This document shows, in pieces, positions 2,690 to 64,000 of a DNA stretch of 64,000 nucleotides. Each line of letters begins with the position of its first letter. Position 1 is the first letter of the stretch. The notes beneath the pieces are model-generated. The model saw only the letters and a list, made by a program, of their open reading frames with translations. It was not told where the DNA came from and did no database searches. Source of the DNA: Octopus vulgaris (Eukaryota); contig OX597830.1 in NCBI GenBank assembly GCA_951406725.2, positions 28,644,001 to 28,708,000 of the forward strand, read 5' to 3'. The translations under genes were made by a program, and so were the position numbers.

Positions 2690-3039
2690 TTGTATGTATG
2701 TATATATACATGTATATACATTTATATACATACACATATGTATATTAATATATATATATATATGCATATATATAAACATATATATATATATATACATACT
2801 TACACAAATGTATATACATATGTATATATATATTCGTTATATATATTTCACATAGAAAATGGAGACATCACCAAATCTACTTTCCTAACTACATATATAG
2901 ATATTGAAGATAAAGGAGAGAAAGAGAGTTGTCAATAGCAAATTGGATACACATATATATACATATATAAATAAGGAGACTGAAAATCACGAAGATACTT
3001 CGATGGACAGGGAGACAATAAATAGTTTGGGAGAGAGAA

Positions 3040-3179
3040 TGTAGCCAGAGTGAGAGAGTGTGAGATAGAGAGAAAGAGAGAGAGAGAGAGAAATAGACAG
3101 ATGGATAAATAGACTCAAAGAAATCAGAAATGAAGATAGATAGATACATAAATAAATGGATGGACAGATAAATGTATAG

Positions 3180-3210
<31 letters not shown>

Positions 3211-3238
3211 AGTAGATAGATAGATAGAAAGATAGATG

Positions 3239-3312
<74 letters not shown>

Positions 3313-3330
3313 GGGAGGGAGGGAGAGAGA
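3040..3330. repeat. (GA)n and (GATA)n microsatellite
   Basis: Long TAGA array around 3175-3310. Confidence 0.95.
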
Positions 3331-3919
3331 AGGGGAGGTGAGAAAGAATGAGAGACAGTGAGATTTATAGGTGTGAAGAAGGAAAATAAAATATTTGGCA
3401 TTTCCCAATTTCACGCTCGCAGTAAGCCTAAATGTGAATTCCAGTGAAGTTATTTTACCTGCAGCTGCTGATGCACGTGAAATATTTTTACATATTGCTG
3501 AAACCACTTACATATTTAGCTAACGGGAGAATAGCTACGCTCTCGTTTATTCTTCTAGAAAACACAGCCAAATCCCATTTAGATCACAACGTATTCTGAC
3601 TTACACCAGAAGGACATATTATATAATATATATGCATATATATATTTTTTTTCAAGTTCATAAGCGAACGCGATGGTCAAATTTACAAAGAATTTGGTCA
3701 TAAGATTTGCAATTTTCGATTTGCGACTGCAGTATAATAGATTACACTGCTGCATTATTTACACTATTGAATAATACGGTTATATATCCAGTAACCATTT
3801 TCCTTCGTAACTTAACTATTAATCAACATCTTCATTTTTTCTATCAAATACAATAGCTATATTATGCTAAGATATCAATATATATTAATATAAACGGAAG
3901 TACTAAAATATATATCGTA

Positions 3920-3993
<74 letters not shown>

Positions 3994-4028
3994 CAATATC
4001 ATTATTATTATTATTATCATCATCATCA

Positions 4029-4101
<73 letters not shown>

Positions 4102-4111
4102 CATTATTATT
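3920..4111. repeat. (ATT)n/(ATC)n trinucleotide array
   Basis: Direct reading. Confidence 0.95.
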
Positions 4112-4596
<485 letters not shown>

Positions 4597-4857
4597 TGTA
4601 GTAGTAGAAGTAGTAGTAGTAGTAGTAGTCGTCATAGTAGTAGTACTTTGATCCGCAGAGTTTGACTTTGTGTTTTAAGCTTTCGAGGTCGAACCAAAAT
4701 TACTGGTCTTGTGCCTACAGTAGAAATGATTAGTTTTCTATTTCAAAATCTATCAGTGTCTGTCTTTTCTTCTCGTTCTCCCGCTCGCTCGTTCCCTTTC
4801 CTCTCGTTTTTTTTCTTTCACTATATACATATATTCATCGGTCTACTATCTATAATA

Positions 4858-5943
4858 TACAAGGGAGAGTTGCCCAAAATAAAAAAAAAATTATCCACAT
4901 TTTTGCCACAGCTCCCATTAGGCTGGCTGCTTAGTGCTCTTGTGACGGAACTGTGGCTTTACCTTGATTTCTCCAGCTTTCTTTCTTGTGTTACACAGTA
5001 AATATTGCTACTCCTCAGGGAGCTTGCATTAACGAAGAACAATAATCAATGATGCGATTTCTCAAGGTCTGCCAGGAGCTGATTTTCATCGCACGTTTTC
5101 AGTAGAATACGGTAAGACCGCTACACTCAGTATAAGTGTTTGTGAGTGGATCGAGAAGTTTCAAAATCGTGGAATTAGCGAAAAGGGAGCAGGACACACA
5201 CGCTCATCTACCACTGACGTGAAGTTTCAAGAAGTGAACATCGAAGAGGTGGCATATTCTTTGCAAAACAAACATGGTTCTGTTTACGAAATAAACCAAG
5301 AAAAGCTTCGCATCTGAAAGGGTTGTGCAAGATTTTGTATCCACAGAATTTACCAAAGCGCATTAGAGTAGTCCTGTGGAGTTCTGTCAATGCTTACTTG
5401 ACCGGTGGACCCATCACTGCGATCCAGGATCCATAAGGTAGAGTATGGATTACAGACATCCGAAATGGTCAGGGAAGAAGAAATTCGATCAATCTTCTTC
5501 AGCAAAAGTAAAGGTAAACGATTTTGGAAAGGTAATAAAGCTATACTGGTCTATTCCCTGGAAGTTGATTTAACAGTCTCCAGAGAAGTCCACAGTTAAA
5601 TGCTGTCCGATACACTGAAACCAGCAATACGCACCAAAATGGGAGGTATATTGCCAAATCAAATGTTTATTGCTGCACAACAATTCAAACCCACATACAG
5701 AATCCCAGTCTGGTAAAACCATTGACAATTGGGATTCGAGTTGCTGGAATACTCTGCAGATACTCCAGATCTCTCTCCTTCCGACTAATACCTCAATGGC
5801 CCGCTCAAACATCTATGAGGTCATTGATTTGCTACGGACGATGACATACAGGGAGGAATGAATAAATGACCGTGTGTGCAAACGAAAACCTTGTCTTCCG
5901 GCAGAATTAGCAAGCTGAATGAGCTGGGTCGAATATCAAGCAG
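4858..5943 (+). mobile_element. Decayed mariner (DD34D-type) DNA transposon, transposase pseudogene
   Basis: Frameshifted peptides EEQ*SMMRFL, VCEWIEKFQN, WTHHCDPGSIR*SMD, LKPAIRTK, LLLHNNSNPHT, TPDLSPSD*YLNGPLK match mariner motifs (EEQRSVIRFL, WIHHYEPESKRQSMEW, LLHDNARPH, YSPDLAPSD). Starts TACAAGGG (TIR-like); right end is lost at the adjoining PLE. Confidence 0.85.
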
Positions 5944-5944
5944 A

Positions 5945-6600
5945 CCTCCTCAACAAATGAATATACACAACCACTGGAGCTTTTCACATCTTTTTACAGT
6001 TTTCCACGGGAACATATCGAACTTTTTGCTTGTTAATATAGGGTTCGGTCTTAGAAAGCGTCTTCCATTTGTTGTTGAATCGTACGTTCTCGTCTTTTAG
6101 GCTTCCAGACTAATGCTGAGAGGGTTGTTGCAATACTTTTTCCGCAATGTCATAAGATCGGTAGATGTTTGCTGTATCTGGATTTAATTTTTCCCTCCAT
6201 TGCTCAAATATAATGCTTAGTATTTCTCCGACCGTTGTCATGGTTTGCTGATAACTATGGCTCATAAACAAGGAAGATATGTTGCATGCCTTCCTGCCTA
6301 GGACGTTTACATTTATTTCTGCATGTACATCCAGGACAGTTCTGATTCATCGTTTGCTTATTATTATAGGTTTTTACACTAGGGGGAGGATGAAAATGTG
6401 ATTTTAACCCATTACCTATAAAGCGTCATTCTTCATTTATAGTTGTTTGGAAAGTGATTATCTAATAAGTGTAAGAATCTTCTATGTATATTTGGCCTAA
6501 CATTTAAGGTGATGGGGCGGGGTGAACCATAAAATTTTACGGGACCAATTCTTACAACCATATGGTCCAGGAATTAGCGGGGCGGGGTTATAAAAGATTT
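5945..6600 (-). mobile_element. Penelope-like retroelement relic: RT C-terminus plus GIY-YIG endonuclease pseudogene
   Basis: Minus-strand peptides RKILWFTPP (WFTPP at 6515-6529) / LNVRPNIHRRFLHLLDNHFP, WVKITFSSSP, GCTCRNKCK, KHYI*AMEGKIKSRYSKH, ATTLSALVWK / LKDENVRFNNKWKTLSKTEPY match the PLE consensus WFNPP..FL.L.DKHFP, CNCR, YIG.TE..FK.RY..H, T.LS...W.LK. Confidence 0.85.
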
Positions 6601-30177: not shown

Positions 30178-31017
30178 CAGGTCGTTGTCGACTTACGACC
30201 TGTAGCACTTACGACCGATCAACTTTACGACGTTTGGCGTCAGCTACAAACACTTACCCTAGGTTCGGTTATCGATCGCCACCGTGGTTATCCCAAGTGG
30301 TGGTTGAATACCCTGTCACGGAGACATCGAGGCAACCTCGTGTTTGTTTATAAGGCGACTGCTTGAGAGTGCGAAATTGTTTACTAACGCCAGGCTCGAT
30401 TGAGCGCGACTCTTCTGGTAATTCTCTGTGTCTTGTCTGATATTTTCTCAAACAAATATCCCCTAAAATTCTTACAAAGAGGAAATTGTTTTCATCTGCT
30501 CCTCAAGCTGCCAGGAAGCAAAAACGGCCGTACAGCTCGGCAAAAAAATTATGGACATTAGTCAGTACGCAGCAGGAAAAAAAGTGAATGAAATCGCACT
30601 GAAGTTAATCACACTGAAGTTCTCACAGTCTACTGTTTCGACAATTTTGAAAGATAAAGAAAGGATTCATGAAGCTGTGAAAAGTGCAATACCCATGAAT
30701 GGTGTTATGACGAAGCAGCAGACTGGGCCCATCCCCCAAGTGGAAAAACTGTTACAAATTTGGATTGACAATCAGATACCAAAACGGACACCGTTAAGTC
30801 GTTTTACTGTGCAGTCGAAGGCTGTTGTAGTACTGATCTAGTATAATACAGAATGCTGTGTGTGACTTTTACCTGAGAATGTACCTTAAGAATGTAGAAA
30901 TATAAAACAAAGCTACGTAGGCCTATAGGCCGACTTACGACCAGATCGACTTACAACCAAATAGACTTATGACCAGTCAGTCGGAATCAGTTGTGGTTGT
31001 AAGTGGGTGGCGATCTG
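30178..31017 (+). mobile_element. Tigger/pogo non-autonomous deletion derivative
   Basis: TA|CAGGTCGTTGTCGACTTACGACC ... GGTTGTAAGTGGGTGGCGATCTG|TA imperfect TIRs with TA duplication; subterminal ACTTACGACC repeats at both ends; internal CENP-B-type HTH coding remnant. Confidence 0.88.
30551..30841 (+). pseudogene. N-terminal CENP-B/psq-type HTH region of a Tigger transposase, no DDE domain
   Basis: SQSTVSTILKDKERI..EKLLQIWIDNQ..PLS..VQSKA typical of TIGD/Tigger transposases. Confidence 0.85.
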
Positions 31018-40649: not shown

Positions 40650-41143
40650 GAGCAAACTTCAGAAGGATTCACCGAAAATGAGAATAACAAAATCCTGTGC
40701 GATGCAATGATATAGTTCGATCACTCGTCTAGACTTTGGAAACCGGACATTGTTGTGGTGAAAAAGAAAGAACATGTGTGATAATCGATAATCGATATAC
40801 CATGACCCTGTGACAAAAAGATCAATGTGAAAGAAGAAGAAAATAAACAACTATGACGATTTGAAGCGAGAACTACGAAGGTTGCCGTCAATGAAGAGAA
40901 TAGACGTGCTACCAACAGTAATTGGTGCACTTGGATGTATCAGCACTCAGCTACCAACATGGCTGAAAAAGATTGGTGTAAGTGTCAAGGTAGAACCCCT
41001 ACAAAAATCAGCATTGCTTGGAACTGCAAGAATTCTTCGTAGGGTTCTTGAAGCATGACCAGTAAACAAGTATCACCTTAGTCTGCTGGCTGTGGACGGC
41101 TGATACTTTCCAACATGCCCGGCAAAATAAGCTGTGAGTTTTC

Positions 41144-53499: not shown

Positions 53500-54125
53500 G
53501 GTGATGGGGCACCACCTTGAAGATGTTTTAGATAAATGAATCGACCCCAATCTTTATTTATTTAAAGTGCGTTACTTATTATATCGAGCCACTACCTTTC
53601 GGGGGCACAAACATGCCACATCGGCTGTCAAGCAGTGTATTCGGGGAAAACACGGACACAATGGCATACTTAAGTAGATATGCAAGCATATATACATGCA
53701 TACTTACATACATACATATATATGGTCATTTCAAAACGTCACAAGTGAATCATAGACGATTTTCTTCCTTCGTCTTCCCTTCTATTGCACTTTCCTCTGT
53801 TTCCGAAGAAGAGTGTCTGCTCGAAACGTTAAACCATCTTTCTTTACTTCCATGAGCGTCTGCTAATATTTTGCAGGTGCCACATCCTCGCGTTGTGTTT
53901 TTTTTTGTTTTCGTTTTTGTGTTTGTTCTTTTGTGGATTTACTATATATACATTCATATACGTATGGCTTCTTTCAGTCTCCGTCATGGAAAATCCGCTC
54001 ACACAATCAGAAGGCTTTGGTTGGCCCGAAGCTCTAGTAGATGACACTTTCCTAAATTGTCATTCATTGGGAGTGAACCCGGAACTAAGTGACAGGGAAG
54101 CAAGCTCCTTAAACCGCCTCTCCAC
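53500..54125 (-). mobile_element. Old SINE group C interrupted by a family A hammerhead cassette (about 53725-53945)
   Basis: Tail half 53500-53670 and head half 53960-54125 flank the cassette, which sits in the internal microsatellite. Confidence 0.7.
53799..53834 (+). ncRNA. Minimal hammerhead-like motif, family A
   Basis: GTTT CCGAAGA A GAGT gtct GCTC GAAA CG TT AAAC; core has U4>C; G-U pair in stem II. Confidence 0.65.
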
Positions 54126-58705: not shown

Positions 58706-58828
58706 TATATATATATATATATATATAGTTAATCCAAAAATGAAAGCACAAAGAGAAAACACAACAACCCGAGGACGTGGAACAAATATAGTATTATTGG
58801 ACGCTCAGGAAGGAAGGAAAGAAGGAGA

Positions 58829-58863
58829 GTTTAACGTTTCGAGCAGAGCTCTTCGTCAGAAAC
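58829..58863 (-). ncRNA. Minimal type-I hammerhead ribozyme, family A (cassette 58727-58935)
   Basis: Minus: GTTT CTGACGA A GAGC tct GCTC GAAA CG TT AAAC. Full core, stems I and II, palindromic ACGU stem III, GUU site. Confidence 0.78.
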
Positions 58864-58949
58864 ATAGGAAAAGGAAAGATCCAGAGAAGGGAAGACGGAG
58901 GAAGAAAAAACGCCAACGGTACACACGCGGTCACATACACACACATAAA

Positions 58950-62310: not shown

Positions 62311-62709
62311 GTCTTCAACAAACAAGATATGTAGATGTAATCTCATGGACATTTGTAGCAGAAGGTCTTCTTTATATACATATAATGGACACTCTGGTCG
62401 AAGACGAAGTATAATTGTTCAGCTGTTACCGAATGACCTGAACAAATGATTTGTTTATACTGATCAAATGCATGTGCTGTACATTGGCTCACACCCTTCA
62501 TCAAATCGACGTTGCCAGGGCATAGTTGCCGTTGCCAGAACATAGTGTACTACACGTTTGGTGTTCAAGTGATCAGAGATCAACGTGAGATAAAATGATT
62601 TGCTCAAAAATACACCGCAGCACCCGGTATAAAAATTTAAACTACTATCTTGCGATTGGGAGTGCAACACTCTAATCACAAGGCCGTGCATACGTACATA
62701 CATATATAG

Positions 62710-62778
<69 letters not shown>

Positions 62779-62906
62779 CTGGCAAATAAATAAATAGATA
62801 AATAATTATATATATGTATATCCGTCTTTTTAGTATGTGACCTCGTGAATACTACCTGCAATTTTTTTCCTCTGTCCTCCCGTCTCGGGATCTTTCTTTC
62901 TCCTAT

Positions 62907-62941
62907 GTTTCTGACGAAGAGCTCCGCTCGAAACGTCAAAC
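62907..62941 (+). ncRNA. Minimal type-I hammerhead ribozyme, family A (cassette about 62835-63045)
   Basis: GTTT CTGACGA A GAGC tcc GCTC GAAA CG TC AAAC. Full core with GUC site. Confidence 0.8.
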
Positions 62942-63069
62942 CCTCCTTCTTCCCTTCTTTCCTGAGCGTCCAATAATACTTTATTTGTTCCACATCCTTG
63001 CGTTGTTGTCTTTTTGTTTTCTTGTTTGGATTAACTTTATGTATATATATATATGTGTGTGTTTGTGTG

Positions 63070-63315
63070 TGGAGGCGCAATGGCCCAGTGGTTAGGGTAG
63101 CGGTTCCGCGGTCGGATGATCGCGGTTTATTGAGCGAAAACACCTAAAAGCTCCACGAGGTCCGGCAGGGGGTGGTGGCGACCCTCTGTTGTACTCTTTC
63201 GCCACAACTTTCTCTCACTCTCTCTTCTTGTTTCTTGAGTAATGCTGCGATGGACTGACGCCACAGAAACTGGGAAACCGGGCCCATGAGCCTGGCTAGG
63301 CTTGAAAAAGGCGAC
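63070..63315 (+). mobile_element. SINE group K (body A, internally deleted, tail Y-like)
   Basis: TGGAGGCGCAATGGCCCAGTGGTTAGGG head matching the 43481 copy; GAAACTGGGAAACCGGGCCCATGAGCC tail. Confidence 0.85.
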
Positions 63316-63521
63316 GTTTATCGTTTTATATGTATATATATATATATATATATACAAATTTAAAAGAGGAATGAGCACTAAAGTGGTCACCCTATATGCT
63401 AAACATAGACGCCAAATCGCCATTACCACGAAGAATGTGTTCTCAAGAAAAAAGTCTCAGCGAAACACCAAAATTAAAAATGATCAAGACAAATGAAAAC
63501 ATGCAAAATGAAAACGATTAC

Positions 63522-63595
63522 CTACGTACCATTGGTTTCACTTGTTAATATCTACGTATATAAACTCGCAGATATCGGCAAGATCATCAGCGTAG
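63522..63595 (-). ncRNA. Type-I hammerhead ribozyme with extended stem II
   Basis: Minus: CTACG CTGATGA T CTTG ccg ATATCTGCG agtttatata CGTAGATAT taa CAAG T GAAA CCA a TGG TA CGTAG. Confidence 0.82.
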
Positions 63596-63656
63596 TCTGT
63601 CGCTTACAAAACACAATTTTCAGAACCAGAATTATTGTCGTCTACACATAGATATG

Positions 63657-63720
<64 letters not shown>

Positions 63721-63785
63721 GACACCGAGTGGGCAGTCATCTAAGAGTTTTTGTTCATCTTGATGCTGACATAAGTTCCTTGTCT

Positions 63786-63864
63786 CTCCTGATGAGAAGG
63801 CAGCATAATGCACCCCTTATTCCTTCGAAATTAGGAATATGCAGCCTTCGAAACATATGTCGAG
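63786..63864 (+). ncRNA. Type-I hammerhead ribozyme with extended stem II
   Basis: CTC CTGATGA GAAGGC ..TATTCCT tcgaaatt AGGAATA.. GCCTTC GAAA CATATG TC GAG; canonical G10.1-C11.1 pair and GUC site. Confidence 0.88.
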
Positions 63865-63944
63865 CATAAAGGAATTTTGTTAAATCGTCGTTCAACGCCA
63901 GTCTTTCATTTATTTGTATATATATATATATATATACTTATATT

Positions 63945-64000
63945 TGCTTCCGTCATTTCACTGCGGCAAAGCTGGATCACCACCTTTCAGTCGAACAAAT
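63945..64000 (-). mobile_element. 3' end of a SINE group C, running off the window
   Basis: GTCATTTCACTGCGGCAAAGCTGGATCACCACCTT..GTCGAACAAAT matches 18675-18722. Confidence 0.65.

Follow-up and report, generated by a model that had tools for sequence, protein, structure and literature searches.

The hammerhead motif at 63.8 kb of the window (the whole stretch of 64,000 nucleotides analyzed here) is, with a probability of about 0.88, the ribozyme of a high-copy Penelope-like terminal repeat, present as a truncated copy of 200 bp that is flanked by TA tracts and is likely inert where it lies. The retroelement is referred to as family A; two further repeats nearby, families B and C, carry hammerheads of their own. 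Positions with a sign are relative to the ribozyme cut. The features concerned are:

62821..63040, plus strand: terminal part of a family C repeat, carrying a minimal hammerhead and ending in TA
62911..62917, plus strand: family C core CTGACGA, followed by an unpaired A, a 4-bp stem II and an ACGT palindrome, with the cut after 62937
63349..63630, minus strand: truncated piece of the ∼530-nt tandem non-coding unit of family B, with a Hydra-type hammerhead
63590..63584, minus strand: family B core CUGAUGAU...UGAAA, with stem III ACCAAUGGU and the cut at 63527
63666..63715, no strand: (TA)n tract separating the 5′ end of the family A copy from that of the family B copy, likely insertion target
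63719..63918, plus strand: 5′-truncated pLTR of the Penelope-like retroelement family A, −142 to ∼+55 around the cut, short 3′ end class
63773..63877, plus strand: type I hammerhead (descriptor scan, folding, and alignment of copies)
63773..63781 and 63869..63877, plus strand: distal stem I, AAGTTCCTT/AAGGAATTT (direct sequence reading)
63786..63788 and 63862..63864, plus strand: proximal stem I, CTC/GAG (direct sequence reading)
63789..63795 and 63850..63853, plus strand: core, CTGATGA and GAAA (direct sequence reading)
63796..63801 and 63844..63849, plus strand: stem II, GAAGGC/GCCTTC, with a 42-nt insert
63818..63824 and 63833..63839, plus strand: hairpin TATTCCT/AGGAATA (direct sequence reading)
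63853..63860, plus strand: palindromic stem III ACATATGT, predicted to pair between two copies; C17 is 63861
63865, plus strand: private base, C instead of the A usual in the family, leaving proximal stem I with 3 bp rather than 4
63917..63936, no strand: (TA)n tract into which the family A copy runs at its 3′ end

Direct reading found every part of the 63.8 kb hammerhead that a preliminary description had named in its place, and the cleavage site predicted there, after 63861, was confirmed. None of 100 dinucleotide shuffles of the window yielded a strict hammerhead site, and a loose descriptor gave 0.13 sites per shuffle. The core has the form CUGANGA...GAAA...UH and is accompanied by stems I and II, which makes the motif a type I hammerhead. 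The z score of the 107-nt hammerhead fold was −2.93, with equal stability in 1 of 200 shuffles. Rfam returned no match to the motif at the gathering threshold, and none of the 48 matches obtained at E ≤ 10 over 62500–64000 was a hammerhead. The term “canonical”, which had been applied to the motif, holds for the core but not for stem III, because stem III of the monomer comprises just 2 bp and a 4-nt loop (+2.4 kcal/mol; pair probability ∼0.005) and is, thus, not stable. The minimum-energy fold of the sequence is not the hammerhead, and thermodynamic folding, which leaves tertiary contacts and Mg2+ out of account, places the hammerhead fold 4.3 kcal/mol above the ensemble. The homodimer duplex of the palindrome ACATATGT has a predicted energy of −7.0 kcal/mol in trans. 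As stem III consists of this palindrome only, the ribozyme is predicted to require either a dimer, a reading based on duplex energies, or the protein of the element. Stem covariation among 54 distinct copies of the motif is thin: 97% of cells are paired, one pair is changed on both sides, and the covariation score of 0.068 was equaled by 11 of 500 shuffles. A stem II pair runs through the series G-C, G-U, and A-U (31, 16, and 4 of the 54 copies), and the TATTCCT/AGGAATA hairpin is subfamily-specific, one of its pairs being broken in 11 copies.

When 63720–63915 was searched against the octopus' own genome (2.8 Gb), the 40 scored of 1,670 candidates gave 58 matches. Full-length matches were 95–98% identical and lay on many chromosomes, many of them as inverted pairs. 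The genome contains 4,212 exact matches to an 18-mer that spans the cut (control, 0), which sets the size of family A at 4,212 copies at least. Alignment with these copies defined the boundaries of the window copy at 63719 and 63918, and TA followed within 16 nt of the 3′ end in 81 of 96 family A alignments, indicating insertion into (TA)n. The preliminary description had regarded the 63.8 kb motif as the best candidate for activity. This view was not sustained; the motif is one of at least 4,212, its stem III probability is very low, and it bears a break in stem I unique among the distinct copies. There, the fourth stem I pair, U-A, is kept in 53 of 54, the sole exception being the window copy, and C at 63865 is found in 0 of 88 unbiased family A copies reaching that position. 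Contigs of four presumed-RNA runs contain family A sequence with A at this position in 99–100% of the depth; such contigs reveal neither RNA ends nor RNA level and are, thus, neutral with respect to expression or cleavage. The probability of stem I is 0.09–0.10 in the window copy versus 0.40 in the nearest subfamily, other subfamilies also having low values (0.11–0.12). Furthermore, the window copy starts at −142, 10 nt past the predicted start site of transcription, and is devoid of the upstream TGACGTCA/TATAA/TCATT cassette (see below). Nothing marks it out for activity.

With no same-family partner nearby, a weakened stem I, and a start downstream of the predicted promoter, the window copy is likely inert at its locus, judging from these predictions. 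Improbable by comparison is that it acts as a passive intronic cutter, that is, a retroelement fossil within a host transcript of which it cuts a fraction, either alone or with family A RNA in trans. Its core, stem II, and long distal stem I are intact, the thousands of other copies could provide partner RNA, and a weak excess of family A copies beginning at the cut (see below) is compatible with some activity. The low probability of the monomeric stem III and the energy gap between the hammerhead fold and the ensemble argue against such cutting, as does the behavior of published Penelope-like hammerheads, which were inactive singly, weak as dimers, or protein-dependent. A host gene could not be recognized: 67 of the 126 open frames of at least 70 aa in the window were scanned with 0 Pfam matches, but short exons escape such a scan, so that a host-gene context is possible. 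The open frames 5033–5433, 30467–30838, and 40831–41055, which we take to resemble transposase or retroelement fragments, had no Pfam match at E ≤ 0.001.

Published Penelope-like hammerheads showed no activity when single and little activity as dimers (Cervera and de la Pena 2014, PMC4209133). The minimal hammerheads described there resemble the 63.8 kb motif in being of type I, with a short palindromic stem III and a long stem II, and in occurring mostly as solitary copies or close opposite-strand pairs. In the 63.8 kb motif, by contrast, stem II is not preceded by an unpaired base; the palindrome is 8 nt long, stem II holds a 42-nt insert, and the distal part of stem I is long.

Long family A copies were obtained via an endonuclease fragment at one neighbor locus, which served for a protein search. 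In four full-length elements (L064, L063, L068, and L071), the ribozyme-bearing sequence forms the closing part. In L064, the order is (TA)n, an inverted piece, the leader, the ORF (2903–5551, with one in-frame stop), the 3′ UTR, the ribozyme-containing pLTR (6070–6266), the tail, and (TA)n; L063 has an open frame of 833 aa, and L071 is a partial tandem. The general plan of the full-length relatives is pLTR, 5′ leader, one ORF, 3′ UTR, pLTR, (TA)n; many have a truncated copy in inverted orientation on the 5′ side, and the ORF begins ∼260 nt after the ribozyme cut. Thus, pLTRs with a hammerhead, partial tandems, an inverted 5′-truncated copy, and an optional tail, as expected of a Penelope-like element, were all found. 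An internally deleted copy, in which the N-terminus of the ORF is fused straight to the pLTR at −169, was noticed at L028:1320–1700. Assignment of family A to the non-LTR retrozymes was considered and rejected, since family A is coding and is, thus, not a short non-coding tandem unit. Metazoan non-LTR retrozymes (Cervera and de la Pena 2020, PMC7229834) also have a type I hammerhead in an AT-rich repeat, but family A is, unlike them, autonomous in design.

Pfam and PDB sequence searches with the family A ORF returned no significant match and no reverse transcriptase (RT). The top seven PDB matches to the predicted fold of the protein (model pLDDT, 76) were all telomerase RTs (E between 1e-8 and 7e-8), and the sequence contains the motifs DKT, GLYRDD, YIG, and CxxC-E-N-CxH. 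Fold and motifs, thus, suggest that the single ORF encodes a telomerase-like RT, as in Penelope-like elements. It probably also encodes a C-terminal endonuclease of the GIY-YIG type, as SIY...FFYIG aligns with homologs, one of which carries the name predicted GIY-YIG endonuclease. The nearest database homologs are 28–37% identical and have the motif set of the Hydra clade. One homolog (P0002), which its source labels “GATA zinc finger domain-containing protein 14-like”, can be aligned along the entire RT and is likely a mislabeled Penelope-like protein. Of the Hydra-clade characters, the change from DKG to DKT is present (SDKT in L063 and L064), and so are CxxC and CxH around the conserved E and N (L063 and L068). 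The aligned RWK position, strictly RWK in 72 of 90 homologs, reads RWL in family A. The CxCX5C linker is found in 0 of 16 readable family A copies versus 82 of 90 full-length homologs; the region is instead a stretch with 21–35% Asn, predicted with low confidence and to be disordered. A fragment of another Hydra-type ORF, at L083:2402–3239 on the minus strand, has kept the CxCX5C linker, which indicates that standard Hydra elements are also present in the genome.

The Hydra clade of Penelope-like elements, including Hydra-1_Obim, was described by Craig et al. 2021 (PMC8557442). Family A shares with it the single ORF for RT and C-terminal endonuclease, DKT, the CxxC-E-N-CxH end, the hammerhead in the pLTR, insertion into (TA)n, and the inverted 5′-truncated copy. 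Unlike the clade, family A has an Asn-rich stretch in place of the CxCX5C linker and RWL for RWK, is ∼3.7 kb rather than less than 3 kb long, and has a tail of ∼150 nt rather than 30–40 nt. Both ribozyme and protein of Hydra-1_Obim differ from those of family A when compared by eye. As the linker is missing, family A is filed as a Hydra-related variant and not as a standard member. The hammerhead literature on octopus or other cephalopods that was found comprises that study and a squid genome paper; Repbase, Dfam, or subscription journals may hold family A.

The genomic copies of family A record how they were made. In an unbiased sample, consisting of the first 100 of 1,485 exact matches to the 20-mer just downstream of the cut, 62 copies had a short 3′ end (∼+55), 35 a long one (∼+200), and 3 another, and 17 of 20 inverted pairs combined one short with one long end. 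Two internal starts of the RT, and the “tail” that they define, have been shown for the Poseidon PAc element of Anolis (Frangieh et al. 2024, PMC11167929), for which uncut RNA is the main substrate and the ribozyme is protein-dependent and dispensable for insertion in vitro. By analogy, the two 3′ end classes of family A would fit two internal RT starts. The two elements are alike in having two 3′ end classes that define the tail, AT-rich targets, and copies templated on uncut RNA; they differ in that the Poseidon ORF starts inside the ribozyme and the family A ORF ∼260 nt past the cut, and in that the family A ends are 150 nt apart and sorted one per side of inverted pairs (PMC11167929). In about 89 of the 100 family A copies, the sequence continues across the cut (91 were counted, of which 2 were spurious gapped alignments), so that uncut RNA is likely the main template here as well.

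The 5′ ends of 8–9 of the 100 copies (6–7 loci) fall at −154 to −150, versus 0.87 expected. The pile-up originally counted 13, from which 5 alignment artifacts caused by a missing subfamily reference were subtracted; the final counts were curated by eye, and an all-against-all recount was confounded by inverted pieces that copies have in common. The spot coincides with TCATT, which follows TATAA at a distance of 28 nt and lies just after TGACGTCA. Among the 54 copies reaching that far upstream, 44 have TGACGTCA, 45 TATAA, and 51 TCAKT; the spacing between TATAA and TCATT is 28 nt in 37 of 39 (21 nt in a diverged subfamily). Such promoter-like cassettes number 489 genome-wide versus 21 for controls. 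We take the three motifs to be a CRE, a TATA box, and an initiator, by resemblance to consensus motifs. The sequence, thus, predicts a promoter in the upstream pLTR and a start site at about −152. The promoter of Penelope of Drosophila virilis (Schostak et al. 2008, PMC2377424) also lies in the pLTR and also needs a partial tandem. It is, however, internal and TATA-less, whereas the predicted elements of family A are upstream of the predicted start, so that truncated copies such as that in the window would lose them.

Sixteen verified copies start exactly at the cut, and each of two control positions has 10 unverified ones, an excess of ∼2-fold after correction (P between 0.009 and 0.03). The 16 remained of 25 matches to the underlying pattern after removal of 9, namely 5 that had element sequence upstream, 3 chance matches, and 1 internal deletion. 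This weak excess suggests that some family A RNA may be cut in vivo; fold-back microhomology is an alternative cause.

These observations can be arranged into a putative life cycle. The predicted TATA/initiator promoter in the upstream pLTR would start an RNA ∼152 nt before the cut, and the protein of the element would likely nick (TA)n DNA. Reverse transcription may then be primed internally, at ∼+55 or ∼+200, on RNA that would in most cases still be uncut. If priming occurred on the 5′ pLTR, cDNA synthesis would stop on reaching the cap or its vicinity, which would give short solo copies like the one in the window. Cleavage by the ribozyme is predicted to need either dimerization through the palindrome or help from the protein, and would probably serve to trim tandem transcripts. 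Internal priming, the position of the promoter, and dependence on dimer or protein are what we infer from the copies and their predicted folds. At somewhat below even odds, and thus tentatively, family A is an element that has lost the linker zinc finger thought to steer (TA)n targeting and yet inserts into (TA)n, that is transcribed from an LTR-like upstream CRE/TATA/initiator promoter rather than an internal one, and that forms each inverted insertion from two cDNAs, primed at the short and the long site. If true, thousands of young copies would map the transcription start, both RT starts, and the small share of ribozyme-cut templates, and the mechanism of Penelope-like transposition would be directly testable from genomic copies.

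That three ribozymes lie within 1 kb, as the preliminary description had claimed, is correct: the motif on the minus strand at 63527 and those on the plus strand at 62937 and 63861 all fall within 924 nt. A relaxed descriptor found four motifs in the window, these three and one at 58833 (minus). The latter belongs to another family C copy (58756–58938, minus), an intact minimal hammerhead with GUU, and a degenerate family C copy (73%) lies at 53759–53919 (plus). Family C had 41 matches of 96–99% identity and 3,714 exact 26-mers; its motif at 62.9 kb fits the descriptor of minimal Penelope-like hammerheads (PMC4209133), and no coding parent was found within 1.5 kb upstream in 15 loci. Family B had 45 matches of 86–92% (∼90%) identity and 93 exact 20-mers, its tandem period of 530 nt is seen in L074, and its 3′ end in the window runs into (TA)n near 63333–63354. 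It is a short non-coding tandem unit, as in the non-LTR retrozymes (PMC7229834), though its ∼530 nt exceed the roughly 220–400 nt given there. Its core type, CUGAUGAU...UGAAA, is common among published Hydra hammerheads (PMC8557442). In its own context, predicted stem formation is below 2%. No coding parent of family B was found within 1.5 kb in the loci examined; a Hydra-type ORF beside L083 was considered for this role and appears to be a separate insertion. Family B may be mobilized by a Hydra-type protein. At L074, L087, and L090, family B units have inverted pieces and TA ends, like a retrozyme-like non-autonomous element, and on C7 (58.6–59.0 Mb) and C13 (64.58–64.68 Mb) of the genome, family B 20-mers recur every 13–50 kb, suggesting segmental duplications.

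The divergent geometry of the 63.8 and 63.5 kb motifs across a TA tract had also been described correctly. This back-to-back layout is not a designed bidirectional cutter but a pair of copies from distinct repeat families, whose 5′ ends face each other across a TA tract. Very improbable is a domesticated switch, in which the three ribozymes would have been retained as a group so that RNA from both strands could be cleaved. Clusters of this kind are locally rare, since three classes within 1 kb were found in 0 of 97 other loci (two classes in 2 of 97), and the chance of such a triplet per 64-kb window is ∼1e-4 to 2e-3. But 40 arbitrarily chosen 10-kb stretches (400 kb) contained 6 motifs (0 in three shuffled sets), corresponding to an estimated 15,000–90,000, roughly, genome-wide, and TA tracts are 2.8-fold more frequent in the window than in these stretches (25.8 versus 9.3 per 10 kb). 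This background together with the TA richness predicts 5–36 triplets genome-wide (range, 0.2–360). Moreover, the three families are unrelated, each copy is truncated and ends in TA, and the copies resemble their own families by 95–99% (A and C) or ∼90% (B), with changes of the drift type. The low stem formation of the family B motif also speaks against a switch, and so do the palindromes, which are incompatible: duplexes of the neighbors' palindromes with that of the 63.8 kb motif reach −0.1 and −1.2 kcal/mol versus −7.0 for the homodimer, so that neither the 63.5 nor the 62.9 kb motif offers a matching partner.

Hardly credible, too, is a single chimeric insertion, in which a template switch of the RT between family A and family B RNAs produced a mixed inverted pair. 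The two copies do lie head-to-head with both 3′ ends in TA, like family A inverted pairs. True pairs, however, join directly, whereas here ∼85 bp including the 50-bp TA tract separate the 5′ ends, and the identities of ∼90% (family B) versus 95–98% (family A) suggest different ages. We consider it likely that three unrelated repeat families met by chance in one TA-rich patch, and the three-motif cluster gives no evidence of function. Other interspersed repeats lie between and beyond the ribozyme elements (63070–63310 and 63938–64000). The former, presumably with a tRNA-like head, recurs in other examined loci. The arbitrary stretches also revealed hammerheads of further families (L140:5014, minus, and 5831, plus; L110, L142, and L146), including an inverted pair with a ACGTACGT palindrome.

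For the locus itself, the finding means little; the motif is real and its origin ordinary. Where repeats target TA tracts, as they do in this genome, clusters of hammerheads are to be expected as a by-product, which should lower the prior for similar finds. For the family, the copies touch on questions that specialists have raised (PMC8557442 and PMC11167929): what Penelope-like hammerheads do, how the inverted and tail structures arise, and what underlies microsatellite targeting. Family A offers a natural test of these, with a linker-less protein still targeting (TA)n, a rule of one short and one long end at inverted insertions, and a predicted start site, and its genomic copies are a way to count cut versus uncut templates.
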